DNA from: Candidatus Latescibacterota bacterium
GTDB lineage: Bacteria > Latescibacterota > UBA2968 > UBA8231
Length of the DNA stretch: 64,000 nucleotides
Assembly (NCBI GenBank): GCA_965223905.1
Contig: CBDCXV010000001.1
Location: 1,440,001-1,504,000 of the forward strand
Direction: 5' to 3'
The position numbers and the translations under genes were made by a program. The notes under the pieces are model-generated. The model was not told the DNA's origin, ran no database searches, and was given only the letters and a program-made list of their open reading frames with translations. Shown here piece by piece: positions 1-15,272 of the stretch. Position 1 is the stretch's first letter, and the number at the start of each line of letters is the position of its first letter.

Positions 1-616
1 CTTCGCCTACCTCCTCGATCCTGAGGAAACCCACGGGCAACGAAAGCTGTTCCTGAGAGAATTCCTTTCACATGTGTTTCCGAAGGGGTTAGTCGGATAC
101 CCAAGGTCTGGTGTTCGAATTGGTCGAGAAATGAGGACCACTCGGATAGAAGACTGGGACCGAAGAATCGATATTGAAATTGCTTTCCGCACCAACGGTG
201 GCTTGGCGGCTATCGCTATTGAGAATAAGCCTTGGGCGGGCGATCAAGAAAACCAACTCAGCGACTACGCCCGACATCTCGAATTGAAATACAAAGGTCG
301 CTTCAACTTGATCTACCTCACGCCGAAAGGGGAAGATCCATCGGAGAATAGTATCAAGCCCGAGAAGCGCGAGAAGCTTTCGAAGGAAGGAAAGCTTGCC
401 AATGCCTCGATCCAGGACTGGGCAAGTGACCATGGTTGGCTGAAGCGAGGAGAAGATGGGGTGAAAGCCGAGCGAGTTCGCTGGTTCGTGTCCGATTTCC
501 GCAAAGCGCTGATCGAGAGCCTTCCGGAGCTTGGCTGGGCTTACGAAGAACCGCCATTCTCGGATCAGGATACTGATCCTACGGGTCCACCAACCCTCCT
601 TGCCGAGATAGCATAA
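1..616 (+). CDS. PD-(D/E)XK nuclease family protein (PDDEXK_4-like), 5'-truncated by the window edge
   Basis: Frame is open from position 2 (FAYLLDPEETHGQRKLFLREFL...). Motifs RIDI...IENK..A.DQENQLSDY and LIYLTPKG..PS are typical of this family. Confidence 0.8.
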   Translation, partial: FAYLLDPEETHGQRKLFLREFLSHVFPKGLVGYPRSGVRIGREMRTTRIEDWDRRIDIEIAFRTNGGLAAIAIENKPWAGDQENQLSDYARHLELKYKGRFNLIYLTPKGEDPSENSIKPEKREKLSKEGKLANASIQDWASDHGWLKRGEDGVKAERVRWFVSDFRKALIESLPELGWAYEEPPFSDQDTDPTGPPTLLAEIA

Positions 617-650
617 GGACGATGATCAGAACCGCCGGTTTGTAACGAGG

Positions 651-765
651 TCGATCCTGTAAGGGCCGAACAACACCGGCTGTAGCGAGCAGACAGTGAG
701 GTAACGGCCGGGCTTGTGCGCTGGTTCATGTCCGATTTCGCAAGACCCTGATCGGGAGCATCCCC
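651..765 (+). pseudogene. Degenerate copy of the 3' part of the upstream nuclease gene
   Basis: 678-764 (ggctgtagcgagc...cgctggttcatgtccgatttcgcaagaccctgatcgggagc) aligns by eye with 438-525 (ggctgaagcgagg...cgctggttcgtgtccgatttccgcaaagcgctgatcgagagc), with a stop codon and an indel. Confidence 0.65.
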
Positions 766-798
766 GCGAAGGACGGGCTCGCGGAAAAAATCCGATCT

Positions 799-832
799 CG
801 CGTCATGATCTGTCGCACCCCCGGGGTAGGTT
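799..832 (+). promoter_or_regulatory. GCG(A/T)C-N7-GTCGCA box plus -10 (TAGGTT), upstream of the AAA ATPase
   Basis: cgcgtc-atgatct-gtcgca, read as TGTCGC-N10-TAGGTT. The same box recurs at 7796, 10436 and 11995. Confidence 0.6.
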
Positions 833-1029
833 CAATCCTTACCCACAGTTGAAGCCATTCGCGGATCGATCCCGATACCCGGTCGGCGGGCGCGAGCGAC
901 CTGCCTTTGGCTCGGAATTTGCATGCTCCCGGGTGGCCGGGCGCTGTGGCAACCAATCCATGGAACCTACCACAGACGTCGACGCGAGGTTTCCAAGTGA
1001 GGCACCCAACACGCGAACCTGATGAAGCC

Positions 1030-3137
1030 ATGCTCACCCCCTACGAACGGAAGCGTCTCTTCTTCTATATGCGCAACCTTGCCTCGCGTATTCACCGGGA
1101 AAGTCTGGAGGCAACGGGGCTTGCCCAGTGGATCGCGGAAAACCGGGACTTGATGGGGCTGGAGTGCGGGAAAAAGGAGACGGAAGAGTTGGAACTGTAC
1201 AAGCTCCGGGCCGGGAAGTCCCTCGACAAGGAACTTTCCAAGAAGGATTGGCAGCGCCTCATGAGGACTCTTGAGACCGGGTACCTGACGGCGCCTTCCT
1301 GTGAGGGTGCTAAGGAAGACCTCACGGCGAGGCGGCTAAGACAGCTCGGAAAGGCTATGGACTTCGCCCCCGAGGATGTCGCGATTCTGGAGATCCTGAT
1401 ATGCAGTCTAACCCAGCCGGAAATCGGTTCGCTGATCGATTCTCTTTGGGAATCCGTACCTCTCCACTTTCGACGCAGGTGTTTCAATGTTTCGAACCCC
1501 TTGCTGCCCCGGGTCCTCGGCATCTCGACCGGTATTTTCCGCGCCCGTTTGGCGACCGATGCGCCTCTCTTAAGGTCAGGGTTGGTGTCCATAGACGACG
1601 ACGGAGACATCGAAACCGTCAAGAGGCTGAACAGGCTGGTCGCCGTCGTGGACGACGGCGACCCGGACGTGCGCCACCTGCTGCTGGTTACGGCGACCCC
1701 GGGGGAACTGGAGTGGGAAGACTTCGACCATGTCGCGGAGCAACGGGACCATATCGAAAAGGTGCTGAAGGGCGCCCTGAGTTCCCGCGCCAAGGGGGTT
1801 AACGTCCTTGTGTATGGACCGCCGGGAACCGGAAAGACCGAGTTCTGCAAGACTCTGGCCATCCGGCTGCAGGCGTACCTCTACAGTGTGGGCGAATCGG
1901 AGGGAGAGGGTGACGAACCATGCCGGCGGAAACGTCTCCAGGAGCTTCAGGTTGCCCAGAACTTGCTGGCTCCCGGCCACGGTGCCATGCTCCTCTTCGA
2001 TGAGATGGAGGACCTGCTTTCCGACCCGAGTTCTGGCTGGATACCCTTTTCCTCGCACGGCTTTTCCCCGCTCCGGTCCGGCGGCTCAAAGGTGTACCTG
2101 AACAGGCTGCTCGAACGCGCCACGGTGCCGACGCTCTGGACCTCGAACTCGGCCAGGGAGACATGTCCCGCGGTTCTGCGGCGCATGACCTTCGCCCTGG
2201 AGCTGCGGCGTCCCACGCGCAGGACCCGGGCGCGAATATGGAACCGGGAGCTGGAACGCCACGGCATCGGAGCGACGGAGGAGGATGGCAAATCTCTTGC
2301 AAAGGAGTTCGACGTTGCACCGGGCGTTGCTTCCGGGGCCATCTCTGCGGCGAGCCTCTGCGGTGGTGACCTCGCTGCAGTGCGCCTTGGGGTGCAAAGC
2401 CTGTCCCGGGTGGTTTCAGGGGAGAAGCCGGATAACCAGGAGGCACCGGAGAGATTCGACCCCGCCCTGATCCGGGCAGACACCGATCCTGTCGGGTTTG
2501 CCGAACGTCTCGAAAAAACCGGGGGGGGAAGCAATTCTCCCTCTGCCTGCAAGGTCCGCCCGGCACCGGAAAGAGCGCCTTCGTCCGCTACCTGGCCGAG
2601 CGCCTCGGCCTCCAGGTCACCCAGAAGCGGGCCTCCGACCTGATGTCGATGTGGGTCGGAGGAACCGAACGGCTTATCGCCGAAGCCTTCGCTGAGGCGC
2701 GCGTCGAAGGCTCTATCCTCGTCTTCGATGAGGCCGACTCGCTGCTCGCCGACAGACGGGGTGCCGTGAGTTCCTGGGAGGTCAGCCAAGTCAACGAAAT
2801 GCTGACCTGGATGGAGAGCCACCCCCTGCCCTTCGCCTGCACGACCAACTTCGGCGAGAACCTCGACCCTGCCACCCTGCGTCGATTCACCTTCAAGATC
2901 AAGCTCGATTACCTCGCCCCAGGACAGTCCAAGAGGGCATTCCGGTCCTATTTTGCGCTCGATGCTCCATCCGAACTGGAGAACCTGACCAACCTGACCC
3001 CGGGGGACTTCGCGGTTGTGCGCCGAAAGGCAGAGATACTCGGCAGCCTCCAGGACCCGAAGGTTCTCGCCGAATTGCTGGGAGCCGAGTGTGAGGCCAA
3101 GCCGGACCATCGGCGCAAAATCGGTTTTCGGACGTAA
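1030..3137 (+). CDS. Double-AAA+ ATPase (~700 aa), frame broken at the G8 tract 2521-2528
   Basis: Module 1: Walker A YGPPGTGKT, Walker B LLFDEMED, VLRRM. In the -1 frame after the G8: CLQGPPGTGKS...KRASDLMSMWVG, LVFDEADS, TTN, LRRF. Joins ORFs 907-2643 and 2643-3137. Likely ATG at 1030. Confidence 0.85.
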
Positions 3138-3314
3138 GTGGTGGACTGATTCCGGGGAAAGAGTAGAAGCACAAAGAAAAAGGGCACCTGACCTCATTTG
3201 GTGGTCCCGGAATTGCTGCCGTAGTTTCTGGCCTGCGAGGGTTTGGAACCAACGCAAAAGTCCAGTTGTTTGACAGAGAGCGTGAGTTATTTGCTAATTA
3301 GGGGCGTTGGATAG

Positions 3315-3413
3315 CAGCCCCTGACGATCCGACCCCAAGGCCGGCAATTCATTCAGAAACAAGGAGTTATGGCCTTGCCGCGGGGCTGTCATGAGGTGAT
3401 CTTAATACCTCAT
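3315..3413. other. Nested inverted repeats / structured intergenic element
   Basis: cagcccc (3315-3321) pairs with ggggctg (3382-3388), caaggcc (3336-3342) with ggccttg (3371-3377), and atgaggt (3391-3397) with acctcat (3407-3413). Confidence 0.45.
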
Positions 3414-3489
3414 CTGGTATAAGGCGCCCATCACCCGAGAGTAGGAGAGGACGTAGGAAATCTATCACCTAATGACCTGGAGAAAATCC

Positions 3490-3564
3490 ATGCGTTCAAC
3501 GGTGACCATTTCCAAGCAAGAATTGATCCTAATTCTGATCTGGATATGGCTGATTATTGAGTAA
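3490..3564 (+). CDS. Small hydrophobic peptide MRSTVTISKQELILILIWIWLIIE (24 aa)
   Basis: SD-like GGAG at 3479-3482, 7 nt before the ATG. The C-terminal half is almost all I/L/W. Below the ORF-track length cutoff. Confidence 0.4.
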   Translation: MRSTVTISKQELILILIWIWLIIE

Positions 3565-3674
3565 AAGAGAGATGGGAAAGGAATATGCCTTTCCCATCCA
3601 CAGGAGGATCCCACATGACTACGGCAATCAAGAGGGGTAAAACCCGGGCCCCGAAAGTCGGGAACCTATCCCAA

Positions 3675-4451
3675 ATGACAATCTCCAGATTCTTTTTTCT
3701 CATCGCACTTCCGGCATGCACTGGCTGTGCTACCATGCTTTCAGGAACAAGCCAGAAAATCCCTGTAGCCTCTACTCCAATCGGCGCAGAAGTCATCGTA
3801 AATGGGAAGTCAGTAGGAAAGACACCCCTTGTCATTGAATTAAAGCGAAAGGACCCTGCTACCATCACTCTGCAGGCAGAGGGATACAAGTCGCATACGA
3901 CTATCCTTCAAAGGAAACGTAGTGGTTGGTTCTGGCTTATTCCTACAATCTACGGCATACCTTCCCTTATTGTGGATGTGGTCACCGGAGCAGCTTACGT
4001 ATTGGAGCCTAAGACTGTGAATATTGACTTCAATCCTCCTGAACCTGTAGGTCCCGATCCCGATCCTGTAATTGAGACTCAGACCAAACCAAGCCCAGAT
4101 AACCAGGGATTCCAGTACTCCAATGTGACTATGGCTCAGAGAAGCAACCCACTTCTCGGACAGTCAGGTGTGGGTTACATGGGAGAAATTACGAATAACT
4201 CTGGTAAGGATTATTATTTCGCCACTTTCAAGATCAGCTTATATGGAAAAGACGGAGGGCTCATTGCCATCCAGGAATTCACCGTATTTGAAATAGCAAA
4301 CGGAACCACACAGAGCTTCGACACTGGACCCATTCTGGATTCAGCGTTGAAGGATCAAGTCGAATCGTTCAGAGTACGGTTTGGTGGAGGGATGGAACAA
4401 AAGGAAGCAGAACAGATGGATAAATTATTAGAGAAGCAACTTACAGAGTAA
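3675..4451 (+). CDS. PEGA-domain lipoprotein with a C-terminal FxLYD-like domain
   Basis: Signal/lipobox TGCAT, PEGA motif STPIGAEVIVNG...GKTP, a hydrophobic hairpin, a Pro-rich linker, then GEITNNSGK...FKISLYGKDG. Low GC. Confidence 0.75.
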   Translation: MTISRFFFLIALPACTGCATMLSGTSQKIPVASTPIGAEVIVNGKSVGKTPLVIELKRKDPATITLQAEGYKSHTTILQRKRSGWFWLIPTIYGIPSLIVDVVTGAAYVLEPKTVNIDFNPPEPVGPDPDPVIETQTKPSPDNQGFQYSNVTMAQRSNPLLGQSGVGYMGEITNNSGKDYYFATFKISLYGKDGGLIAIQEFTVFEIANGTTQSFDTGPILDSALKDQVESFRVRFGGGMEQKEAEQMDKLLEKQLTE

Positions 4452-4537
4452 GGGAAAGCGGCAAAATGACTGATCAGACACCTGCACCAGACGACAGCGG
4501 CAAGAAGAAGATGGGGCGCCCTGAGTGGTTCCTGAAG

Positions 4538-5761
4538 GTAACCGTTCAGTTCCCTGGCAGATTGGGGCCGGGGGCGGAATGGTCGCAGGTTGGTATTAGC
4601 GAATGGGGGAGTGGGTTGAAGGCAGCAGCGAGGGCGCCGGCTGCTGACACACGGCGGCGTCACAGGCCATCCTGAGATAGTCGAGGACGTTGCGCTTTTG
4701 CTGGCGCAGGGTATCGCGCACCGTGAGCAGGCGCTCTACGAAACGGCTGCCTTCGGCACTGTGAGTGCCGAAGCTGGTGTGACGCCACAACACGCCATGG
4801 CGAAGGGCTCGTTCGGCTTCCGTTGTTGGTCGGCTCGACGCCGGGCCGGCGTGCGGCGAATGGAGAACACGGTGACGCCGTCCGTCACCGCGGTCCACAA
4901 CCAGGCCTTGGCGCGGCCCTGCCGCCAGCCGGTCTCGTCGACGTTGACTATGCCCTGTCGGCGAACGAAGGCGCGCGCCTCCTCGACCGCACCCGCCAGG
5001 GGGTCGCAGCCACTTCCTGTTCCAGTCGGCTGACGGTGCCCAGCGACACCTTGAAGCCAAAGGCGTCGGACAACAACGCCCGGATGTTGCGCTTGCTCAG
5101 CCGGTAGGCCCCGGCCAGCAGGCCGATCCAGGCCTGCACGCTGGGCCGTAGGTGTGCCGCGATACGCCCTCGGGCCAACCGGCTGCGGTCAGGCGGTCGC
5201 AGTGACCGCAGCGCAAGGTGTGCAGCTGATACTCGATGACCTCGGCCCGCAGCGGCGAGATGACGACTTCCTGGTGGCGCTGCGGATGGGGATCGTCTCC
5301 CGTCAACCGGTGCCCGCATCCGTGGCACGTACTCGGCTTGACCGGGATCCGTTCGTCCACTTGCTCGACCGATACCCACGAGCGCCCGTGCCCTTCGTGC
5401 CCGGGCTGCCCGCCCGGCGAGCGCCCCGAGGACCGGCGTCGGCCGGAGGCATCGGTACGCCGCGTGGAGGAACCCGACGAGGAGGTTTGAGCGCCACGGC
5501 GGGATCGCCCCTTGCGACGGGCCAATTCCTACTCCAACTCGGCGATGCGGGACGTCTGTTGTTCCACGATCCGCTCGAGCTGGACAATGCGCTTCCGCAA
5601 GTCGCCTTCGGACATCGCACTCTCAGGAGGTCTTTTCATGGGGTTGCCCGTGTCCGGAGAATCTGCAACACACAACCAATCCGAAGATACCGACGAACCC
5701 GAAAACCCGCTTAGGTATTTCTTTACATGCGCAAACTACTGCAGGGGGACTGAACGGTTAC
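4538..5761 (-). mobile_element. IS66-family insertion sequence (single-ORF, ISBst12-like), internally deleted and degenerate
   Basis: Terminal inverted repeats GTAACCGTTCAG at 4538 and on the reverse strand ending at 5761. TnpC fragments: GGQPGHEG, CxxCG zinc finger, DETGW, AERALR..V..R..SFGT.S..G, TLRQQKRNVLDYL. Contains stops and frameshifts. No target-site duplication visible. Confidence 0.9.
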
Positions 5762-5797
5762 GAACCAACGGCCAGGTTCCGAGGAAGGAGCGGACTC

Positions 5798-6982
5798 ATG
5801 ATCGACGGTAGATTTTTGCAGTTGTTATTGGATGCAGCCAAGCATTTTGGTGAGCATGGGGCCGGACAGCCGGCCTTCAACGTCTTCTCGGTTCTGCACA
5901 AAGAAACCGATGAGGTGAATCTCCACTCCCGGTTTCTCCATGCCCTTCTCGACCACCGACACGGTGGGCACCGAAAAAACCTGGAACATTTTTTGGGGCA
6001 GCTTCCAAGCAAGCCCTCAGTTGATGCACGGGGTATTGATCCAGACCGCGCAGAAGTAAAAAGGGAGAGCGACAATATCGACATCCTGATTCGTGATCCC
6101 GACCCTACTTCCAAGCGTGCCCTGATTGTCGAGAATAAGATCGGGGCCCCGGATCAAAGCCGGCAACTGTGGAGGTACGCCAAACAACAGAAGACGGAAG
6201 GGTACTCACCTCATCTGCTGTACCTTACGCTGGATGGGCACGCTCCTTCTGAAGACAGCAGGCGCTGCCTGGATTACGAATGTATTTCCCTTATCTCCTA
6301 CAAGGAGCACCTTCTCCCTTGGTTGAAACATTGCCAGGAACGGGCATACAACGATCCCACACTGCGGGAGTCGATTGGCCAATACCTGTCCTTGGTCGCG
6401 GCTCTGACAAAAACGGAGGCATATATGAATGACTTGAAGAATCTTTGCATGGAAGACAAACATCTTCATCTTGGCCTCATTCATGACTTGAACAAGGCCA
6501 TGATTGAATCGAGGGTTTCCTTGTTCGAACAGCTTTGGAATGAAATCGAATGTAAGCTGCAGAAAGAGATTGTGGAGCTCCCCCACAAAGTGGAAGATAA
6601 CGTATCCAAAAAAAGAATTGAAAATTTTGTCACACCCAGAAGCGAGTCTCACGACCTATATTCTGGATGGCACGGGAAATACTATAAGCTTAAAGGTTCC
6701 GCCAAGCTCAGCGTTGAAATTGGCGACACTATGCACTTTGGGGTCAAATGTCGCCAGAGTGAAGACGAATACTGCAAGTTCCTCGAAGCACTCAAAGGAG
6801 AAGGTGGCAGTAGTAATAGTGGATGGGGATTTGTCAAAGAAGTAGATCCGCGGATGAGGGAGCCAACCTCAGAGAACTTCGAGCTGCTTACGAATAGACA
6901 AGCTAGGGAGAAGTATGTCGCCGAAATCGTGTCTGGCGTACGTGAGTTGTGGCTGAAAATCAAGAAGGCAAACCTTGCCTGA
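5798..6982 (+). CDS. PD-(D/E)XK nuclease family protein (PDDEXK_4-like) with a variable C-terminal domain
   Basis: FNVFSVL...EVNLHSRFLHALLD, IDILI, IVENKIGAPDQSRQLWRY, LLYLTLDG..PS. SD AGGAG. Low GC. Confidence 0.85.
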   Translation: MIDGRFLQLLLDAAKHFGEHGAGQPAFNVFSVLHKETDEVNLHSRFLHALLDHRHGGHRKNLEHFLGQLPSKPSVDARGIDPDRAEVKRESDNIDILIRDPDPTSKRALIVENKIGAPDQSRQLWRYAKQQKTEGYSPHLLYLTLDGHAPSEDSRRCLDYECISLISYKEHLLPWLKHCQERAYNDPTLRESIGQYLSLVAALTKTEAYMNDLKNLCMEDKHLHLGLIHDLNKAMIESRVSLFEQLWNEIECKLQKEIVELPHKVEDNVSKKRIENFVTPRSESHDLYSGWHGKYYKLKGSAKLSVEIGDTMHFGVKCRQSEDEYCKFLEALKGEGGSSNSGWGFVKEVDPRMREPTSENFELLTNRQAREKYVAEIVSGVRELWLKIKKANLA

Positions 6983-7041
6983 CCGCCGAACGGATCGAGT
7001 AGATAGATTTTGCCCCTCGGGTTGTCGATGGACCTCTTGTA

Positions 7042-7368
7042 CTATGCCCTCAGCAAGCGCCGCTGCAGCAACGTCTGCATGTCCCGCCTCCCATCTGCGA
7101 TCACGAGCACGTAGACGTTGTTTTCGATCACCCGGTAGATGATGCGGTAGGGCTTTAAGAAAATCTCACGGTAATCCAGAACCCCGATGTCCAGCAGGTT
7201 CTCCGGATAGTTCCCCCGCTCGGGAAAATCCGAAAGGGTGGTGAAGGCTTTTTCCACCTGCTTCAGCACCCGGTTCGCTCGGCCGGGCGCACCATGCCGG
7301 TCGATGTAATCGCATATCTCCTCCAAGTCGCGGGTCGCGTCATCGGTCAACTGGACCTGGTAGGACAT
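7042..7368 (-). CDS. parE: Type II TA toxin, ParE/RelE family
   Basis: V.LT.DA..DL.EI..YI, FP.RG, YRIIYRV, V..IADGRRD. Overlaps the antitoxin stop codon. Confidence 0.9.
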   Translation of the reverse strand: MSYQVQLTDDATRDLEEICDYIDRHGAPGRANRVLKQVEKAFTTLSDFPERGNYPENLLDIGVLDYREIFLKPYRIIYRVIENNVYVLVIADGRRDMQTLLQRRLLRA

Positions 7369-7643
7369 CAGCGGGCCTGACCCCGCTCGCGGATCCGTGC
7401 GACGACATCGGAAGCAGGCTGAACCTGACCCGCTTCGATCTGCCGGTTGCCCAGCGCGAGGATCTTGAGCAGCGCAAGGGTTTCCTGCATCTGTTCGTAG
7501 CTGTCGATATCCTGCATGACCGCCTTGGCTTCGCCATTCTGGGTGATGATCAACGGTTCCTGTTGGTCCCCAAGAGTGCGCACAATCTCAGCGGCGTGGG
7601 ACTTGAGGTAACTGATCGGCTTGATTTGGCTGGACAGCTTCAT
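7368..7643 (-). CDS. Type II TA antitoxin, Phd/YefM family
   Basis: MKLSSQIKPISYLKSHAAEIV...PLIITQNGEAKAV. Strong SD AAAGGAGGT before the ATG at 7643. Confidence 0.9.
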   Translation of the reverse strand: MKLSSQIKPISYLKSHAAEIVRTLGDQQEPLIITQNGEAKAVMQDIDSYEQMQETLALLKILALGNRQIEAGQVQPASDVVARIRERGQAR

Positions 7644-7666
7644 GGACCACCTCCTTTCGGACTGAA

Positions 7667-7687
7667 TATGGACCATAAACAGGTCAA
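7667..7687 (-). promoter_or_regulatory. TA promoter with an operator palindrome
   Basis: TATGG-A-CCATA palindrome at 7667-7677, next to a TTGACC -35-like hexamer on the minus strand. Confidence 0.5.
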
Positions 7688-7795
7688 CACAAGGCCCGGA
7701 CTGATCGGAGTTCCTGTCGGGAATTGATAGCCTGCCTGAGAGCCGGAATTGGATCCCCCCGGATAAATCAGGGCAACCTCCCGAAATGTCCCGGC

Positions 7796-7829
7796 CGCGA
7801 CGCGATCTGTCGCACCCGGGGCGGAGATT
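7796..7829 (+). promoter_or_regulatory. GCGAC-N7-GTCGCA box upstream of the collagen-like lipoprotein
   Basis: cgcgac-gcgatct-gtcgca, read as TGTCGC-N10-GAGATT. Confidence 0.55.
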
Positions 7830-7869
7830 GAGAAAACTCACGGACGTATCCAAACCAGGGAGACGTGCA

Positions 7870-8412
7870 ATGCGTATGAGTTTTTCTCTTTTCTCTGCCC
7901 TGCTGGCAGCCGCCCTCGCCGCCTGCGAGGGTCCCACGGGACCGATGGGGCCGCAGGGAGAAACCGGTCCGCAAGGGAGACAAGGTGAAATCGGATCACA
8001 GGGAGAACGCGGATCTCAAGGCGAACGGGGGCCGCAAGGGGAAGCCGGACTCCGGGGCGAACCCGGACCGCCCGCGGAAGGGGTCATCATCGATTGGAGA
8101 CTGGCAGGTTCATCCTACGACCTGGACGGCAACATCAACATAGAGGATGACAGGATCACTCCGACCACTTTCCGGGTGCTTTACCTGAAGGCCGAATTCG
8201 GGTCTGACATTGTAGCATACGTTCCCCTTGACTACATGCTGGTGTCCGAGGTTTCGATCGTATCCGAGATGGAAGAGCTGGAGACGCCGGTCCTCTTCAT
8301 CGCCGAGGGCAGGCTCCTGATCGTGGATCCCAACCGGGTCCTTCTTCGCGTCGCGCTGGAATCTTCGCTCGAAGGAGTTGATGTCGACCTGGCGGTTCTG
8401 GTTTCGCATTAG
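7870..8412 (+). CDS. Collagen-like (Gly-X-Y) lipoprotein
   Basis: Lipobox LAAC followed by about 16 uninterrupted G-X-Y triplets (GPTGPMGPQGET...GEPGPP) and a globular C-terminus. Confidence 0.85.
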   Translation: MRMSFSLFSALLAAALAACEGPTGPMGPQGETGPQGRQGEIGSQGERGSQGERGPQGEAGLRGEPGPPAEGVIIDWRLAGSSYDLDGNINIEDDRITPTTFRVLYLKAEFGSDIVAYVPLDYMLVSEVSIVSEMEELETPVLFIAEGRLLIVDPNRVLLRVALESSLEGVDVDLAVLVSH

Positions 8413-8704
8413 GGGTGCCGGGTTTATTGGCGGGGCAGTTGCGCTGCTGTCCGCCGGGGATGTGGTCATGAACCGGCAGTACGAACTCGGACCGATAACC
8501 GTGCAGTGCGTCTCGACAGCGTCCGGGGCTGCCGCACCGGCCTGCCCCATTATGAACCGTTGGCATTCCCTGGAACTCCCTGCGGGCGGGGGTGTCCTCT
8601 AAGGTCAGGGTGTTTTGCGGAATAGAGGGTCGGTGTGGTCAAATTGTCGATCCCGTTGAAGCAGGCCCTTCTCCAAGCGATAGTCGCAATTCGGAGGTAA
8701 ACCG

Positions 8705-9502
8705 ATGCGCACAAGAATTTCATTTCTCGCTTTTCTGTGGGCCATTCCCATTGCCTCCTGTGATGGGCCGGCGGGACCGGACGGGGACAAGTACCTCGAG
8801 ACAAGGGAAGTAACGGTCGGCCCGACCCTGGCCAGATGCTACGGCGTCGGTGAACGGTCCTGCATGGTGGTCGACGGCTTCCTCTTCTACGATGCCATTG
8901 AGGGCTTCGAATACGAGGCGGGCTACGACTACCGGCTGCGGATCGGGAAATACGACCCCTGGGGCGGAGAGGAACCGCCGCAGGACGCCGGCCAGTGCAG
9001 CTATCGTCTGCTGAAACAGCTGGAGAAGACCCCCGCTCCCTCCACTCCCGCGAGCCTGTCTCTTGGACCCACCCGGGTGAAATGCGCGCAGATCGACGAC
9101 TTCTGTCTGCTGATCGACGGCGCCCCGTACGATGACATTGTCACCAAATTCGAATACGAGGCCGGCTTTCACTATACCCTTGACGCAAATAGGTACGGGG
9201 ATGGCAGGTACGTATTGAATTCGGTGACCTCGAAAACGGAAGCGACCGGTACGGAAGAGGAGATAACCGTGGAGCCGCACAGGATAGAGTGCGGCAGCAG
9301 CGACCGGGTGTACTGCAACGTGGTCAATGGAGAGGCGTTCCACAGCGAAATCGTCGGTTTCGAGCCGTGGCACGGTTACAGCTACCGCCTGAGGGTCGAA
9401 CGCTTCGACATGTTCGCCGGTGGCGTTACTGCCTCGTCATCCGGCGTTCCAGACTATGGTTATCGATGGCTCGAGACGTTGGAACGAAGTCCCGCCGACT
9501 GA
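8705..9502 (+). CDS. Lipoprotein with three tandem DUF4377-like domains
   Basis: Lipobox IASC. Three repeats of (V/L)(G/E)P...C...C..V(D/N)G...I.(G/K)FE...G(Y/F).Y.L. SD GGAGG. Confidence 0.75.
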   Translation: MRTRISFLAFLWAIPIASCDGPAGPDGDKYLETREVTVGPTLARCYGVGERSCMVVDGFLFYDAIEGFEYEAGYDYRLRIGKYDPWGGEEPPQDAGQCSYRLLKQLEKTPAPSTPASLSLGPTRVKCAQIDDFCLLIDGAPYDDIVTKFEYEAGFHYTLDANRYGDGRYVLNSVTSKTEATGTEEEITVEPHRIECGSSDRVYCNVVNGEAFHSEIVGFEPWHGYSYRLRVERFDMFAGGVTASSSGVPDYGYRWLETLERSPAD

Positions 9503-9627
9503 TACCCACCTGACCGCGGCCAAGGGTGCGGGGCCGGCGGCCTCGAGGTCCCCTGGCCGCAGAAGCGCCTGCTCCTGCGAAATCGATCCGTTTGTCAGCC
9601 ACCCCGTAACCTGAGTCCTCGAGCCGG

Positions 9628-10371
9628 TTATTCCTCTGGACACGGATCGTCCCCGGGGAAGCTGAGTGTGTCCCCGCCGATCCAGGACAGGACCCGCTGG
9701 CGCAGATGCACCTCGACGTCGAGGATCGAGGGCCGCTGCTCGTTGACGCCGCCCATGCGCAGCAGGTAGCAGTCGATCAGGGGGGCGTCGGCCCTGAACC
9801 GGCTTATGGCCTGCATGGTCACCCCGATCCCGCTCGAACAGAGTATCTCCAGCAGATTGCGGATGCGCACTTCCTGCTGGGCCCCGTGGCCCCGGGTTCC
9901 CGGTTCCAGCTCTTCGTAGTGATCCCGGAATTCCGAGGACACTGCCCTGAAGAACAGCAGCAAGAGCACTTGCCGGTCGAAGGGGGTCAGGCGGCAACGC
10001 CTTACGAGGTCGAGGAACGGGACCACCTGCGGATCGCTCGCCTCCAGTCGCGCCTCGGAAACCCCCCCGAAGCGCAGCAACTCATGCTCCGAGGTATCGA
10101 GCCGCTGCCGCAGCTCTTCCGTCGGGATGGCCCCCTCCGGGTCGATGTACAGGCCGGAGCACCAGCGCCGCCGGCTCCGCTGGCGCACGAGGCGCCGCAG
10201 CCCGCCGCATTCCAGCTGCAGAATTGCCTCTTTTAACATCGCGTCGAGAAACTCGGGGTTTGACTTGTAGCCCCGAACCCGGAGAAGGGGTTGCGCCGCC
10301 GCCGTCATCGTCCCGCCCCCAATGAGACCGTGGTCGTCGAGGGTGCGCGGGTCGGGCTTTTTGGTGGGCAT
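9628..10371 (-). CDS. Stand-alone N-terminal (winged-helix-like) domain of the AAA-ATPase family, no ATPase module
   Basis: LTPFDRQVLLLLF...F...Y..L and FRADAPLIDCYLL resemble the N-terminal region of the 1030-3137 ATPase (LATDAPLLRSGLV). SD GGAGGAG. No Walker A. Confidence 0.55.
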   Translation of the reverse strand: MPTKKPDPRTLDDHGLIGGGTMTAAAQPLLRVRGYKSNPEFLDAMLKEAILQLECGGLRRLVRQRSRRRWCSGLYIDPEGAIPTEELRQRLDTSEHELLRFGGVSEARLEASDPQVVPFLDLVRRCRLTPFDRQVLLLLFFRAVSSEFRDHYEELEPGTRGHGAQQEVRIRNLLEILCSSGIGVTMQAISRFRADAPLIDCYLLRMGGVNEQRPSILDVEVHLRQRVLSWIGGDTLSFPGDDPCPEE

Positions 10372-10435
10372 GTCGCTCCTCCAGGAGAATGGGTTCGCTC
10401 TCGTGCAGCAAAAAGCGAACCTGTTTTCCAGGGGG

Positions 10436-10454
10436 TGCGACGGATCATGTCGCG
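10436..10454 (-). promoter_or_regulatory. GCGAC-N7-GTCGCA box upstream of 9628-10371
   Basis: Minus strand reads cgcgac-atgatcc-gtcgca-ccccc. Confidence 0.55.
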
Positions 10455-10609
10455 GGTGGGCGACTTTGGGGGGGGTTCTGCAGGGAGGCATTCGCCCCGA
10501 AGTTCCCGGACTACGGGAGGGTCAGGCCAAGGGGAGGAAGCGAGCTATGTGGGAAAGGTATCCTGAAAGCACCAAGCCAGCGGCTTCGCCGGTGTCGGCC
10601 GGACTGAAG

Positions 10610-11947
10610 TTAAAATTCTTCCTCGGTCTCAGTCCGCCACTCCGGCGCCAAATCCCTGAAAGTCGCGCTCTCGGCGTTCCATTGCAGCTTCACCGAGCCC
10701 AGCGGGCCGTTGCGCTGTTTGGCGATGATGATTTCGGCAGTGCCTTCGAAGCTGTTGTCTTCGTGGTCTTCGATGCCGTGCATATCCGGGTGGTAGATGA
10801 ACATCACCATGTCGGCGTCTCGGTCGCCGCCCGGCTCCCGCAAGTCCGCAAGGCTTGGCCTTTCTTTAGTGCTTTCCAGTTCAGACAGGGCGAGCACTGG
10901 TACGTTCAGCTCCTGGGCAAGGCCCTTGAGGCCCCGGGAGATTTCCTGCTTGCAGGTGTAGGCTTTCGTCTGTCGACCCATCATTTCCAGAGAGTTAACG
11001 ATAGTCAGGCCGATCCCGTGCTCCCGATGCAACCGGCGCGCCTTGGCCCGGATTTCGGTTATTGAAATTCGGGAGGTATCGTCTATATAGACAGGTATTC
11101 CGGCCAGACGTTCTGCGGCGCTCCTCAGGTGAACCAATTGGTCGTCGCGGAGCCGGCCGCTGCAAAGCTTGTGCAGATCCACCTGCGCCTCCGCGCTGAG
11201 CAGTCGCCGGGCAAGCTCCATTCTGGAAGTTCTCGGGCTGAAGATTGCAACCCCGATCCCCGTTTCCACCGCGGCGTTCCGCGCCAGCGCAAGGGCGAGG
11301 GACGTTTTTCCGGCGCCCGAGGCAGCCGCAAGCAGGATAAGGTCTCCTTTTTGTAAGCCGGAGGTTATATGATCGAGCTCGATGAACCCCGTCCCGATCC
11401 CGGAGAGGGAGCCTACCCTGCTGCAGGATTGCTCAATCTGTTTTACGGCGTCGCCGATTTGCGAAGCCAGCGGCTCAAGCCCATCGACGATTTGGTTTTG
11501 GCGGATCCTGTCAAGACCTTGCGCGGCGCTTTCAAGCAGAACATCCAACTCCCTGCTGCCTTCGCGGGCTTGCTCGATGATGTCGCCGGCAGTCTCGATC
11601 ACCTTGCGCCTGAGTGCCTTGTCGAGGATGATCCGCGCGTGGGCGTCAATGTTTGCCGCGGAGGCGAACTCGATAGCCAGCCTGGCCAGGTAGACGGACC
11701 CGCCAGCCTCATGGAACTGATCACGGAGCTTGAGCTCCTCGGACAAGGTGAGCTGATCGATCGCCACCCCGCGCTCGTGTAGTTCTACCAATGCGGCGTA
11801 AATCCATTTGTGCGGGACGTGGAAAAAACAGTCCGGATCGAGGGTTGCGCTGGCGCGGTCGATGGCGCCAGGGTCTAGCATCATTGCCCCCAATACGGCC
11901 TGCTCGATCTCTATCGCCTGGGGCGGAATGTGCTGGTTGTCGGCCAT
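10610..11947 (-). CDS. dnaB: Replicative helicase DnaB paralog with degenerate catalytic motifs
   Basis: Full DnaB architecture (PPQAIEIEQAVLG N-domain, GI.TGF.ELD..T.GLQ.GDL, IDD, AEIIIAKQRNGP). H1a reads FSPRT, H2 NSLEM, H3 LSEL, and H4 is shortened. Confidence 0.9.
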   Translation of the reverse strand: MADNQHIPPQAIEIEQAVLGAMMLDPGAIDRASATLDPDCFFHVPHKWIYAALVELHERGVAIDQLTLSEELKLRDQFHEAGGSVYLARLAIEFASAANIDAHARIILDKALRRKVIETAGDIIEQAREGSRELDVLLESAAQGLDRIRQNQIVDGLEPLASQIGDAVKQIEQSCSRVGSLSGIGTGFIELDHITSGLQKGDLILLAAASGAGKTSLALALARNAAVETGIGVAIFSPRTSRMELARRLLSAEAQVDLHKLCSGRLRDDQLVHLRSAAERLAGIPVYIDDTSRISITEIRAKARRLHREHGIGLTIVNSLEMMGRQTKAYTCKQEISRGLKGLAQELNVPVLALSELESTKERPSLADLREPGGDRDADMVMFIYHPDMHGIEDHEDNSFEGTAEIIIAKQRNGPLGSVKLQWNAESATFRDLAPEWRTETEEEF

Positions 11948-11979
11948 ATGAAATCCCGGGGCATTGGATGTATCCCAGG

Positions 11980-12013
11980 ATTATGGCCCACAGGTGCGAC
12001 AGATTGCGTCGCA
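11980..12013 (-). promoter_or_regulatory. Perfect TGCGAC-N7-GTCGCA palindrome plus -10 CATAAT, upstream of the dnaB paralog
   Basis: tgcgac-agattgc-gtcgca at 11995-12013. Minus strand reads TGTCGC-N10-CATAAT. Confidence 0.65.
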
Positions 12014-12066
12014 GGCGGAACTTTAACAGATGGGGGGTGCTATTTTTTCAGGAATCCTCATCGGGC

Positions 12067-12101
12067 AAAAAAAGCGGGGAGCGGCCAAAGCCACCCCCCG
12101 C
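12067..12101 (-). terminator. Rho-independent terminator after the TonB receptor gene
   Basis: Minus strand GCGGGGGGTGGC-TTTG-GCCGCTCCCCGC-TTTTTTT. Confidence 0.75.
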
Positions 12102-12123
12102 TCTTCCCGTACCCCCTGCCCCT

Positions 12124-14660
12124 TCAGAACCGGCACCCCAGCTGCGCGAAGACCAGGCGCCCCACCTCCGGGGCGCCGACGAACGCCTGGTAGGCCCCGC
12201 CCAGCACATTGCTGACCTCGACCCGCAGCACCAGGTCCTGCTCCAGGGGCAGCCGCCAGGCCAGGTTGAGACCCAGCACGGTATAAGAATCCACCTCGCC
12301 CACGAACACCCCCGAGCTCATGGAGAAGGCGCCGGTGTAGCGCACCCGGCCGCCAGCCGACAGTCCCCACCTGCCGAAGTCGTAGTTCGCCCCGAGCTTG
12401 GCCTTGTGCCTCGGGGCGTTCAGGGCCACGTCGGCTCCCCCTTCGGAATGCAGGTACTTCAGATTCTCGAAGAAGTTGTTGTCGACGAACGAGTAGTTCC
12501 CCGTGAGCCTCCAGCGATCGTCGGGGTACCAGGCCAGACTCAGGTCCAGCCCGCGGATGGTCACGTCTTCGAAGTTGGGTAGCTCATGGTCATCGCGTAG
12601 GGATCGGAGGCCTGCTCGGGAGAGACGGTGCCGTAGGGGATGGCCGCCGCCCCCGCGGTGAGGATGCCGGCCAGCTCGTCCACCGGGGTGCCGTTGTTGT
12701 TGCCCTGCACCACCCCCGGCACCTGGGCCGCGTCCAGGGCCGCCAGGGCCCCGGCAAGTTGCGCGTTGTCCGGATCGGACAGGGCCTGCCCGATCCCCTC
12801 GCCCAGGGCCGCTCCCAGACTCTGCGGGTCGAGGAAGACATTCGGAGTCTCCACCGAAATCGCCCCGACGAAGTTCTCGATCCTCGACTGGTACAGATCG
12901 GCTGCCACTACCAGCTTGTCGGCCACCACCCCTTTGTAGCCCAGCTCGACAGTCTGAGTTATGGCCGAGTGGATGCGCGGCACGTCGTAGGCGGTTATGG
13001 GGGTAGTGCCGTCCGCCTCCACGAAGAAGAAGGACTGTCGATCCGGATCAGGCTCCTCGCCGAGTGGCTCCGACTCGATGTTCAGCCTGCCCATGACATT
13101 GCGCAGGCCGGGCAGCTGCTCCGGCACGACGCCGGGCAGGGCCTTGGCCAGCTGGGCGGCTGCCCCCTGGGCGTCTTCGGCTCCCATGCCCTGGGCCACC
13201 AGGGCGCCGCCAGCCAGTGCCTGGAAGGCCGGTCCGAGCTGAGCGAGCACCGCCTGCCTGCCGCTCCCCCACATCACGTTGGTGACCAGCGGGTGGTCCA
13301 TGGCCATGTAGCCGTCCGGCCCGATGGGATAACCGGCGTCCCCGGGGGCGAGCCCCAACAGGGAGGCCTGGCCGGCCACCAGTGGGGAGAAGGGAGAGCG
13401 GAAGAGAGGCCGGCCCCCCTCGTCCCGCCGGAAGGTGAAGCCGTAGCCGGTGCTCCTGTAGTTCCCCTGGGTCCAGATATCGATCGGCCTGAACTCTCCC
13501 AGGCCGAGGGCCGAAAAGAGGGGCGTGAAATTCGCGCTCAGCCCGAAGGGATCCCGGGCCGTTTGCAGGTCGAGGTAGAGATTGTTCGAGGTAGGTGTGC
13601 TGAACGCCCGGTTGTAGGTCAGCCGCAGGGTCTGGGTCTCCCTCGGCTTGAACACCAGAGCCGCCCGGGGGGACAGCTCGGGATCCGCGAGGCGGCTGTG
13701 GTAGTCGTAGCGCAGGGCCAGCACCAGGTCGAGCGGATCGCTCAGGGCGGTCTCGCTCTGCACGTAGCCGCCGAACTCGTTGAGGTCGTCCTCCTCCTCG
13801 TTCCCGCCCATGATGGTGCCGTCGGTGTCGGGCCGCGTCATCAGGGCGTCGAAGCCGTAGGTAAAGCGCTGGCGCTGACCCAGGCTGGAGGTGTGCTGCG
13901 CCTGGAACACGTCGAGGGAGGACCTGTCGACGACGGGAATGCCGGTGCGCAGCAGATACGTGCCGCCCGCATCGTTCCAGTTGCGGAAGGCCTGGAAGAA
14001 CCAGTCGCCGTACAGCAGCCGCAGCTGGGTGTAGTTGTACTGTCAGTCTATCGCCTGCGACGCCCCCACCCCGGTCAACCCGACCACGTCCGACTTGCTG
14101 TGCCCCGCCGCCAGTATGGCGGTCAGGTCGTCGGATGCCCGCCAGTCCAGACGCACTTCGGCACTCCGGGTCCTGGAGCCGTAGTCGCGCGGTGCCAGGG
14201 GGGGCAGATCCGCTCCCGCGTCTATCGACGCCTGCCTCAGTTCCCGGGCCTCCTCCTCCTCCGGGTCGGTGTATTCCCACTCCGTCCCCGTGTAGTACTG
14301 GCGGAGACCTTGTAACCCAGCCGGTCCCCCAACGCCCCGGCGTGCCGGAACCCGGTCTGGCGCAGGCTGCGCTCCCCCATCCCGACGTTGACGCTGGTGC
14401 CCTGCGAGGCAAAAGGGGAACGGGTGATGACGTGCATGACCCCGTCGGCGCTGTTGGGTCCGTACAGGGCCGACCCCGGCCCCAGGACCACCTCGATGCG
14501 TTCGACGTCGTCGTTGGTGAGGGGGATGAAATTGAAGGCGTTGACCCGCAGGGAGGGCACCCGTGCTATGCGATTGTCCGTCAGCGTGAGCAGGGTTCCG
14601 GAGAACACGTTGTTGAAACCGCGCACCACCGCGTTGAAACTCTGTTTCAGTTCGGCAGGC
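12124..14660 (-). pseudogene. TonB-dependent receptor pseudogene (5' part missing, two frameshifts, one nonsense codon)
   Basis: Plug motifs VRGFN and IERIEVVLGPGSALYG.N...GV..VIT, barrel strands, C-terminal Phe (LGCRF). Frameshifts near 14300 and 12578, in-frame TGA at 14043-14045, no signal peptide. Confidence 0.85.
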
Positions 14661-14679
14661 GGTGTCGTGATCTTGTCGA

Positions 14680-14973
14680 TCAAACTGGTTGCGGCTCGTA
14701 GCGCTCGACTTCGATCTCATCCTCTCGCGCCTGGGCCTGCGCGACGTCGTAGGCAGCCTGTAACCTTATCCAGGTCTCAGTGGTAGAGCCGAAAGCCTTC
14801 GCCAACCGGACCGCCATCTCCGCCGACAGGCGAGCGTGACAGTTCACCAGGTTCGAGAGGGCTTGGCGGCTGACTCCGAGGACTTTCGCCCCCTGGGTGA
14901 CGCTGAGACCGAGCGGCTCCAGACAGGACACTCGAACGACCTTCCCGGGATGGGGTGGGTTCTTCATGGGCAT
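14680..14973 (-). CDS. higA: HigA antitoxin (HTH-XRE)
   Basis: MPMKNPPHPG...LGLSVT.GA..LGVSRQALS.LVN...LS.EMA.RL.KAFG.T.E.W..LQ..YD. Confidence 0.92.
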   Translation of the reverse strand: MPMKNPPHPGKVVRVSCLEPLGLSVTQGAKVLGVSRQALSNLVNCHARLSAEMAVRLAKAFGSTTETWIRLQAAYDVAQAQAREDEIEVERYEPQPV

Positions 14974-14993
14974 GTCGATTACTCCATTTATCC

Positions 14994-15272
14994 TTAGTGG
15001 TAGTCGATCAGTTCGACGTCGTAGACGTTCTCCCCTTCGAACCGGAAAATGATGCGCCAGTTGTTCTTCAAAGTCACCGATCAATAACCCTTCCGGTCTC
15101 CTTTGAGCATGTGCAGCCGATAGTGGGGAAGGCGCATGGCTTCAGGAGAGCTGGCGACATCGAGTTGGGCGAGGATCACTTCCACACGGTCGTGCATATC
15201 CGCACCGATGAGGCTGCGGTCACCACGCTCATACAGGCGCTTGAGCCCACGATGTCGGAAACTCCGAATCAT
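14994..15272 (-). pseudogene. higB: HigB toxin with an internal TGA (Trp codon to stop)
   Basis: MIRSFRHRGLKRLY...RLHMLKGDRKGY*SVTLKNNWRIIFRFEGENVYDVELIDYH. The stop at 15081-15083 sits at the conserved W of GYWS. Confidence 0.9.

Follow-up and report, generated by a model that had tools for sequence, protein, structure and literature searches.

What keeps a gene for a DnaB-like helicase in an uninterrupted reading frame when the residues with which such an enzyme hydrolyses ATP have been replaced? This question is raised by a 64,000-nucleotide stretch of DNA (hereafter the window; positions 1,440,001 to 1,504,000 of contig CBDCXV010000001.1, assembly GCA_965223905.1) from a Candidatus Latescibacterota bacterium, in which a dnaB-like gene, a second copy beside the canonical dnaB of the genome, is located on the reverse strand. 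The motifs of DnaB helicases include a catalytic, water-activating Glu (in H1a), the Walker B Asp (H2), a gamma-phosphate-sensing Gln (H3), a DNA-binding loop (H4) and an Arg finger, and in RecA-fold ATPases the loss of the water-activating Glu abolishes hydrolysis. Moreover, the N-terminal collar of canonical DnaB is the primase-binding platform. An initial annotation of the window had described the product of the gene as an intact DnaB that had lost its cis catalytic residues and kept the trans Lys and Arg finger, more likely by selected inactivation than by random decay, and had proposed a stress-induced pseudo-helicase that poisons DnaB hexamers or serves as a decoy. As checks it had named a canonical dnaB elsewhere in the genome, orthologs with the same substitutions, and the ratio of non-synonymous to synonymous substitution rates (dN/dS, omega).

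The computational follow-up described here points to a selectively kept, ATPase-dead derivative of the host DnaB, carried as a cassette of an accessory island with DriD-type promoters, which would be induced by single-stranded DNA (ssDNA) and would act as a static, binding-only mimic of DnaB. Judged from sequence, this reading is assigned a probability of roughly one half.

A DnaB fold with altered catalytic motifs

The 445-amino-acid protein is recognized by the Pfam models for both DnaB domains, i.e., PF00772 (DnaB N; 97.5 bits) and PF03796 (DnaB_C; 236.6 bits), and aligns over its full length with the solved DnaB structure 2vye (E=9.9e-90), with 2r6a and 2q6t as further solved relatives. 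Its score with the NCBIfam DnaB equivalog TIGR00665 (387.1 bits) is barely over the cut-off of 385.25, and the scores with the phage-type and SPI-7 island-type DnaB models are far below theirs (TIGR03600, 302.2 versus 498.65; NF040583, 297.2 versus 655). The source genome (7.92 Mb in 11 contigs) contains two DnaB_C matches, the paralog (238.5 bits) and a canonical copy on contig 11 (357.9 bits) that has all motifs and is 51% identical to the paralog. With this canonical copy present, the paralog would not need to be the fork helicase.

Comparison with the contig 11 copy bore out the intact frame and the motif changes that had been noted before. In the P-loop region AARPSVGKT has become AAASGAGKT, by which the GKT is kept and the preceding Arg is lost; in H1a, FSLEMS has become FSPRTS, which places an Arg at the position of the catalytic Glu; the Walker B motif (H2) has changed from IDYLQLM to VNSLEMM (Asp to Asn) and H3 from LSQLSR to LSELES (Gln to Glu). 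A five-residue deletion directly after H3 adds to the earlier account. The H4 DNA-binding loop, DLRESGSLEQDAD in the canonical protein, reads DLREPGG-DRDAD in the paralog and is one residue shorter, and in the motif that carries the trans Lys and Arg finger, GKQRNGP has become AKQRNGP, with KQRNGP kept. By these alignments, the paralog is a structural member of the DnaB family that lacks what characterizes the family at four catalytic points.

The pattern of loss is shared by a clade derived from chromosomal dnaB

Relatives were collected from a 5.8-billion-protein collection, a representative library, and all 76 genomes of the taxonomic family. Genome G002, which belongs to the same genus as the source genome (G000) and consists of one 7.05-Mb contig carrying a canonical as well as a paralogous copy, encodes an ortholog with 94% identity in which H1a, H2, and H3 are substituted in the same way and the five residues are likewise missing, and which has a different H4 (DLWESGNLDQEAD). 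The same changes are found in six further close relatives (91-95% identity) from the 5.8-billion-protein collection. Deeper relatives display other combinations of losses (P0007, 70% identity; P0012, 61%; P0046 and P0073, 57%), and in the representative library the Arg finger is missing from P0121 and the P-loop Lys from P0123, which keeps the Glu. The search of the 76 family genomes detected paralogs in 13 genomes that belong to 3 of the 18 genera (g1, g11, and g14), with 15 copies, 13 of which are intact, one is frameshifted (locus L025 in G012) and one is truncated (G073). Weaker second DnaB-like matches fall outside this count, i.e., those in G004 (34% identity), G053 (41%, partial) and G086 (40%, partial) and the split pieces in G042. 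Six g14 copies had been flagged as pseudogenes on basis of internal TAG or TAA codons; translation revealed these to be the natural stop codons of slightly shorter proteins.

In a quick IQ-TREE maximum-likelihood tree of 41 rows, from which the fragments P0005 and P0006 and the g14 loci were left out, all 12 degenerate proteins and a motif-intact copy of G012 formed one clade (Shimodaira-Hasegawa-like approximate likelihood ratio test support, SH-aLRT, 99) that is nested among the chromosomal DnaBs of the family. By this nesting the paralog descends from the dnaB of the host rather than from a helicase of phage or plasmid origin, and it would have arisen by a duplication of the chromosomal gene within the bacterial family. 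The nearest canonical DnaBs carry the source names Gemmatimonadota or Gemmatimonadetes (three matches) and Candidatus Latescibacterota (one match). Since the residues that were lost vary from branch to branch, and the G012 copy with intact motifs lies inside the clade, the catalytic decay has happened more than once.

When 23 paralogs and 41 canonical sequences were compared at 12 key residues, all 41 canonical relatives kept all 12. Among the paralogs, the catalytic Glu of H1a (2/23), the Arg before the P-loop (pre-Walker-A; 2/23) and the H4 Arg (5/23) are seldom retained, the Walker B Asp (16/23) and the H3 Gln (15/23) are retained in part, and the P-loop Lys (22/23), P-loop Thr (23/23), Arg finger (22/23) and trans Lys (21/23) are kept almost throughout. 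With the canonical sequences intact while the paralog clade loses a specific subset, the motif change exceeds what is expected by chance. The predicted cis-dead, trans-intact pattern that the initial annotation had described for a single protein is a property of the whole clade. Moreover, 192 columns that are conserved to at least 95% in 21 non-redundant canonical sequences were scored in 13 non-redundant paralogs, which yielded a mean retention of 0.82 (N-terminal domain), 0.77 (C-terminal domain) and 0.58 (linker), with 86 of the 192 columns retained at 0.9 or higher. Conservation is lowest in the inter-subunit linker, where not one of the 9 canonical columns reaches that level and all 13 paralogs have replaced the canonical Phe at query position 157. 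The alignments thus indicate that the losses are focal and confined to specific motifs.

Several copies have an unusual arrangement. Locus L056 of G074 (G074:C1:5924000-5943999) has the dnaB-like cassette twice, in both cases intact and behind a box, at a distance of 5.8 kb from each other, and the double-AAA ATPase gene of the island likewise occurs twice in it. In G060 the dnaB-like frame (L055 8928-10268 onward) has no stop codon at the usual C-terminus and continues as an open frame of 730 amino acids, which may be an in-frame fusion that resulted from a deletion. The canonical dnaB was encountered as two matching pieces (query 5-373 and 375-440) in frames of 609-1011 amino acids in G012 (G012:C2:3883836-3885590), G014, G049, G063, G079, and G080; database relatives of this type carry the Pfam intein family PF14890, and these canonical genes probably contain inteins.

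Selection on the paralog and a mosaic H4 region

Omega was determined by pairwise Nei-Gojobori comparison with one maximum-likelihood check, in genomes that, being related, are not independent samples. Between G000 and G002 the paralog displays a dN of 0.032 and a dS of 0.110 (omega 0.29), which corresponds to 32.5 synonymous differences in 318 sites and 31.5 non-synonymous differences in 1017 sites (Fisher p=2.9e-6), a ratio well below 1; for the same pair, omega is 0.25 for canonical dnaB and 0.32 for the WHD gene downstream of the paralog. The N-terminal domain is the best-conserved part of the paralog (omega 0.17). In genus g14, 15 pairs from six genomes with a dS of up to 0.6 yielded a median omega of 0.27 (range 0.22-0.43) for the paralog, versus 0.11 for canonical dnaB. 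In a neutral simulation with uniform substitutions and no insertions or deletions, only 1.3% of the copies were free of stop codons at 0.11 substitutions per site, and 0.05% at 0.25. Given that omega is below 1 and that frames are intact where neutral copies are rarely stop-free, the paralog is maintained by purifying selection, under a constraint that is relaxed but real. Together with the focal nature of the losses, this sustains the earlier preference for selected inactivation over random decay.

The H4 region follows a pattern of its own. Between the paralogs of G000 and G002, 9 of the 28 amino-acid differences and the only insertion or deletion are located within residues 359-377, and for residues 356-380 (about window positions 10808-10882) both dN (0.21) and dS (1.17) are high. 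Two divergent H4 alleles (…STKERPSLADLREPGG-DRDAD and …CTQERPRLEDLWESG[NS]LDQEAD) are mixed among relatives with over 90% identity, and an insertion or deletion near residue 325 comes in three variants that are mixed with the two H4 alleles among close relatives. An imported, recombined mosaic patch fits these patterns better than positive selection.

DriD-type boxes form a putative regulon private to the island

The initial annotation had placed the gene behind a WYL-type box. This box is real (box 4, Table 1), and its palindromic core makes it a putative DriD-type operator. Nearly identical elements of the form GCGAC-N7-GTCGCACC precede the dnaB-like, WHD, collagen-like, and AAA genes. A consensus scan detected no sigma-70-type -35/-10 pair in positions 9400-12300. 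The element with the extended right arm has 7 matches in the 7.9-Mb genome, and the full palindrome occurs only 4 times, in all cases at this locus. The looser GCGAC-N7-GTCGC is not enriched genome-wide (23 sites versus 18 in a reversed-genome null), and 4 of its 23 sites lie within 13 kb. The pattern GCGACNNNATCYGTCGCA was matched 23 times in four other genomes, in all cases at island genes, versus 0 times in a backwards-read control: 5 within 23 kb in G012, 6 within 14 kb in G060, 6 within 10 kb in G074, and 6 in G002, where these are distributed over three places (the regulator, a second WHD fragment and the dnaB-like/WHD block). The strict box is confined to island genes in G000, G002, G012, G060, and G074, and the box and its flanks upstream of the dnaB-like gene are invariant in 5 genomes of 3 genera. 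In G001, a genome of the same genus without the paralog, the regulator is absent and no box was found. The position of the fifth box, at the stop codon of the regulator gene (Table 1), recurs in G012 and in g14 loci, and this box may be an autoregulatory or an antisense site.

The regulator, encoded just outside the window, has a helix-turn-helix (HTH), WYL, and WCX layout and is DriD-like: among solved structures it is closest to the DriD entries 8tp8, 8tpk, and 7tzv (E about 2e-11; 1.9e-11) and to 9pfq, which is labelled only as a WYL domain-containing protein. The match with PafBC is weaker (E=1.7e-3), and no BrxR or CapW structure was matched at E<=0.01. In the cited parts of the literature on DriD, the site is given as ATACGAC(N7)GTCGTAT and homologs were surveyed with CGAC-N7-GTCG, and DriD is described as activated by ssDNA, upon which it turns on didA, recA, recJ, bapE, and dnaG (PMC10853764); DriD sites are further described as overlapping with the -35 element and as having a constant spacing to a weak -10 element (PMC12340889). 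Mentions of "DnaB" that a search returned from the latter paper stem from the abbreviation DNABD and are irrelevant to DnaB.

The box is private to one accessory island, and the idea of a genome-wide damage regulon was rejected because the box occurs at island genes only. None of the core DNA-repair genes recA, recJ, and dnaG has a strict box, degenerate sites at repair genes not having been searched individually. The stress induction that was proposed initially stands as a reasonable expectation from the match with the DriD core, and would be limited to the island. No RNA sequencing run that covers the stretch is listed; 23 runs from 8 studies match part of it, as contigs.

The accessory island and the WHD gene

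Every mapped paralog locus has members of one gene set, which comprises the HTH-WYL-WCX regulator (72-87% identical between genomes), a small open reading frame (ORF) without a known family, a PD-(D/E)XK_4 nuclease, a collagen-repeat lipoprotein-like gene, a double-AAA ATPase, the dnaB-like gene and often HigBA. The features of the window are listed in Table 1.

Table 1. Position of the island features, in window coordinates unless a genome is named (aa, amino acids; nt, nucleotides)
Feature	Position	Strand	Remarks
PD-(D/E)XK_4 nuclease gene, 3' part	2..616	+	PADLOC candidate PDC-S26, E=5.5e-25
Box 1, GCGTCATGATCTGTCGC	800..816	+	precedes the double-AAA ATPase gene; left arm with one mismatch
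Double-AAA+ ATPase gene	907..3137	+	ORFs 907-2643 and 2643-3137, frameshift near the second AAA domain; intact single ORF in G002 and G012
ParE/Phd-YefM toxin-antitoxin pair	7042-7640	-	second type II pair flanking the locus
Box 2, GCGACGCGATCTGTCGC	7797..7813	+	upstream of the collagen-like lipoprotein gene
Collagen-repeat lipoprotein-like gene	7870..8412	+	also in G012 and g14 loci
DUF4377 lipoprotein-like gene	8705..9502	+	also adjoins the dnaB-like copy in locus L025 of G012
WHD-only gene (PF22977)	9628..10371	-	about 226-247 aa; downstream of the dnaB-like gene; start may be a later Met near 10308
Box 3, GCGACATGATCCGTCGC	10437..10453	-	upstream of the WHD gene
DnaB-like paralog	10610..11947	-	445 aa, no interruption; N-terminal collar domain and RecA-like C-terminal domain
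CATAAT, -10-like hexamer	11980..11985	-	10 nt downstream of box 4
Box 4, GCGACGCAATCTGTCGC	11996..12012	-	DriD-type palindrome CGAC-N7-GTCG; 48 nt upstream of the dnaB-like ATG
HigB-HigA toxin-antitoxin pair	14680..15272	-	borders the island in 5 of 10 loci of another genus (g14); HigA fragments in 3 more
HTH_11-WYL-WCX regulator gene	G000:C1:1438123-1439097		324 aa; just outside the window
Fifth box	G000:C1:1439089-1439105 (L027 13089-13105)		just before the window; overlaps the ATGA shared by the regulator stop codon and the start codon of the small ORF that follows

The block common to the window and G002 (9529-12045, 92.8% nucleotide identity) contains the dnaB-like gene, its upstream region and the WHD gene. 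Gene order is shuffled between genomes, with fragments of AAA and HigA genes at the junctions, which suggests shuffling of cassettes by recombination. In several g14 loci, HigA fragments and fragments of the AAA C-terminus directly follow the dnaB-like gene. The split double-AAA gene of the window would be either a pseudogene or an assembly error. Relative to G002 (L023), the window contains some 6.4 kb extra between the WHD and AAA genes (3069-9529), with a PEGA-domain gene, a second PD-(D/E)XK_4 gene, the ParE/Phd pair, the collagen-like and DUF4377 genes, and insertion sequence (IS)-like remnants, which at 4532-5761 match a transposase region of G002. The GC content of positions 1-8000 is 0.54-0.59, versus about 0.65 elsewhere. 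A TonB-dependent receptor gene (12124-14720, reverse strand) is split over at least three ORFs, at 12124-12564, at 12561-13910 and, for an N-terminal part, near 14043-14720; G012 has, next to the gene for the WYL regulator, an intact receptor of 853 amino acids (L025 39-2600), which lies upstream of its frameshifted paralog.

An ORF of roughly 200 amino acids with a signal peptide and beta-barrel-like features lies between the box and the dnaB-like gene in G076 (L053 7710-8348) and in loci L052, L054, L055, and L057, and in several g14 genomes the dnaB-like gene starts 10 nucleotides after it. Of this ORF, G012 (L026) retains only a signal-peptide remnant, and G000 and G002 lack it altogether. 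The neighbours further include a 1314-amino-acid protein with a RecQ-like helicase core in G002 (L023 4211-8155), and AAA_15, a CAP12/Pycsar-type TIR protein and a 957-amino-acid ResIII helicase in G012 (L026 882-6621). With a PDC-S26-like nuclease, an IetA-like ATPase, TIR and toxin-antitoxin genes, the neighbourhood is defence-like. No integrase, origin-like repeat or tRNA attachment site was seen in the window, and no integrase family was found among the 26 window ORFs that were scanned. This accessory, shuffled and defence-flavoured neighbourhood leans towards a conflict or stress island.

The WHD protein is 62% identical to residues 28-254 of a 742-amino-acid WHD-AAA+ ATPase in G012 that matches PADLOC IetA (E=5e-13), and in that genome a ClpP-like gene lies between the motif-intact paralog and the WHD-AAA+ ATPase gene. 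In metagenomes, 14 WHD-only proteins were found (154-266 amino acids, 78-96% identical), and all of those that were aligned end at the same position. By this comparison, the WHD gene is a truncated WHD-AAA+ ATPase gene of which only the N-terminal part has been conserved, and the truncation is old. In two cases (P0281 with P0012, and P0270 with P0004) a WHD-only and a DnaB-like protein have longest contigs of equal length, and these may lie on the same contigs. The idea that the WHD ORF and the convergent AAA gene are halves of one gene split by an insertion was rejected, as G002 has them as two genes on opposite strands and the WHD resembles a different ATPase, the G012 WHD-AAA protein. A predicted complex of the DnaB-like and WHD proteins scored 0.00 in both runs, a result that speaks neither for nor against binding. 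The AlphaFold2 model of the WHD protein (mean predicted local distance difference test score, pLDDT, 41.9) was too poor for a fold search.

Discussion

In the reading favoured here, the DriD-type island regulator would switch the gene on when ssDNA accumulates through damage or phage replication. The protein would then bind ATP without hydrolysing it, and with its degraded H4 it would neither grip DNA in the central channel nor translocate. ATP and the Arg finger would serve only to hold the subunits together in a static, ATP-glued ring or sub-ring, in which the conserved N-terminal collar stays available for partners. Such a protein would act by binding DnaB partners rather than by unwinding, either as a sponge for the host primase or loader, and thus as a replication brake, or as bait for phage proteins that hijack DnaB; the evidence does not separate the host-directed from the phage-directed variant. 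A fuller version is put forward tentatively, as a possibility well short of even: an ssDNA-triggered, ATP-binding, non-hydrolysing, and DNA-blind ring that mimics DnaB would brake replication or bait phage proteins, and its partner module (ClpP and WHD-AAA+) would have been reduced in parallel to a binding-only WHD.

Several observations weigh against the favoured reading. The family is not uniformly dead, as all catalytic motifs but the pre-Walker-A Arg are present in the G012 member of the clade (G012/P0008), and P0121 and P0123, which have lost the Arg finger and the P-loop Lys, respectively, indicate that ATP-dependent assembly is not universal in the clade. In g14 the omega of the paralog is about 2.5 times that of canonical dnaB. 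The locus displays decay as well as shuffling, with a frameshifted AAA gene here, a frameshifted paralog in G012 and a truncated one in G073. Searched against PADLOC 2.0, the DnaB-like protein matched no known defence family apart from a weak P-loop match to mad8 (E=1.7e-6, residues 189-253). Finally, a regulon that includes envelope-type proteins (collagen-like, DUF4377, and the beta-barrel-like ORF) fits neither a replication brake nor classic defence.

Among the alternatives, the poison subunit of the initial annotation survives best, and it is considered rather unlikely. According to this explanation the paralog enters mixed hexamers with the host DnaB, in which its trans Lys and Arg complete the site of the neighbour. 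The ring would be brought to a halt by the dead site and the degraded DNA loop of the paralog, by which replication pauses under stress. The clade-wide cis-dead, trans-intact pattern, the descent from the host's own dnaB lineage, a promoter of the ssDNA-responsive DriD type, and the N-terminal domain as the best-conserved part (omega 0.17, retention 0.82) would all agree with such a role. The identity to host DnaB of only 51% disagrees with it, and so, as a weak argument, does the linker, in which the lowest retention (0.58) and the replacement of Phe157 in 13 of 13 paralogs suggest a diverged assembly specificity.

A somewhat smaller chance is given to the dead ring being a platform for the WHD(-AAA+) and ClpP-like or the double-AAA proteins of the island, independently of the replisome. 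This scaffold is a serious rival because the paralog and its WHD neighbour lost their ATPase functions in parallel: in G012 a motif-intact DnaB accompanies ClpP and the full WHD-AAA+ protein, and elsewhere a degenerate DnaB accompanies the WHD-only remnant. The WHD gene lies directly downstream in all three paralog-bearing genomes among 41 relatives, only 5 of which have the WHD family, and the shared end residue of the 14 WHD-only homologs, the two possible cases of contig sharing and the WHD omega of 0.32 also speak for it. However, none of the 10 g14 loci has the WHD gene beside the paralog, and G019 and G008 have WHD-AAA+ genes without the paralog.

It is improbable that the gene is a functionless relic, i.e., a duplicated dnaB in a decaying island that has not yet acquired stop codons. 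Neighbouring pseudogenes (the split TonB-dependent receptor gene and the frameshifted AAA gene), the frameshifted G012 and truncated G073 copies, and the elevated rates and long branches of the paralogs are what a relic would predict, but omega is significantly below 1 in 16 pair comparisons (0.22-0.43), 13 of the 15 copies are intact at divergences at which simulated neutral copies are almost never stop-free, the losses are motif-specific with 86 of the 192 columns retained at 0.9 or higher, and the box is invariant across genera. Least probable is an active replicative helicase of a mobile element with substitute catalytic residues, which would account for the kept P-loop GKT and Arg finger, the canonical motifs of the G012 member, the shuffled gene order and the IS remnants, and is contradicted by the replaced Glu, Walker B Asp, and H3 Gln, the shortened H4, the abolishment of hydrolysis upon loss of the Glu, and a window in which neither an integrase nor origin-like repeats nor a tRNA attachment site was seen.

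If the fuller version holds, the DnaB mimic would represent a new class of pseudo-enzyme checkpoint or decoy, made from a core component of the replisome. A conserved DnaB without an active site of its own, which keeps the residues that it lends to its neighbours and lies behind an ssDNA-responsive switch, would be a natural tool to study how cells or defence islands pause or guard the replisome. The locus also extends DriD-type regulation to another phylum, in a compact and private regulon of 4-6 promoters that can be mapped completely, which opens the regulator-operator pair and its cargo to direct testing.

Comparison with known systems

The paralog has the two-domain architecture, P-loop GKT, and KQRNGP motif of canonical DnaB, which differs in having the Glu, Walker B Asp, H3 Gln, and full H4; the paralog is an additional copy that lies in an accessory island behind a WYL-type promoter. 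Full-text literature searches turned up neither a catalytically inactive DnaB paralog nor a case of DriD-type regulation from this phylum.

A likeness to IetAS-like pairs of an ATPase and a protease is seen in G012, in the succession of motif-intact paralog, ClpP-like gene and IetA-matching WHD-AAA+ ATPase. IetS is a subtilisin-type protease, whereas the G012 protease is of the ClpP type, and the window retains only the WHD remnant.

The island regulator resembles DriD of Caulobacter crescentus in HTH-WYL-WCX layout and length (324 versus 327 amino acids), and the core of its box, CGAC-N7-GTCG, is identical to that of the DriD site. Like the DriD site, the island box is located at the place of a -35 element, with a fixed spacing to a weak -10. 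The flanks of the island box differ (GCGAC...GTCGCACC), and so does the regulon, as the DriD targets named in the cited part of PMC10853764 are recA, recJ, bapE, dnaG, and didA, and here only island genes carry the box. In the phage-defence islands controlled by BrxR or CapW, a WYL regulator is likewise found beside a variable, defence-like gene set; CapW is reported to sense ssDNA (PMC11662680), and both regulators are described as repressors. A recognised complete defence system was not identified at the present locus.

Type XI-like retrons of lineage TXI_noncan_h provide DnaB_C-domain proteins in defence-type loci, with no function assigned to them in the cited section (PMC13712802). These proteins are neighbours of reverse transcriptases in Bacteroidota, in a lineage from which WYL proteins were reported to be missing (PMC13712802); the island has no reverse transcriptase, encodes a full-length DnaB including the N-terminal domain, and has a WYL regulator. 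Dead replication-enzyme paralogs such as ImuB are key non-catalytic parts of damage responses. A dead paralog that is kept as a non-catalytic component (PMC6511836) is a parallel by analogy only, as ImuB belongs to an unrelated fold and pathway. In the accounts cited here, the separate ingredients of the locus, i.e., dead replication-enzyme paralogs, WYL-regulated defence islands, and DnaB_C retron accessories, each have precedents.

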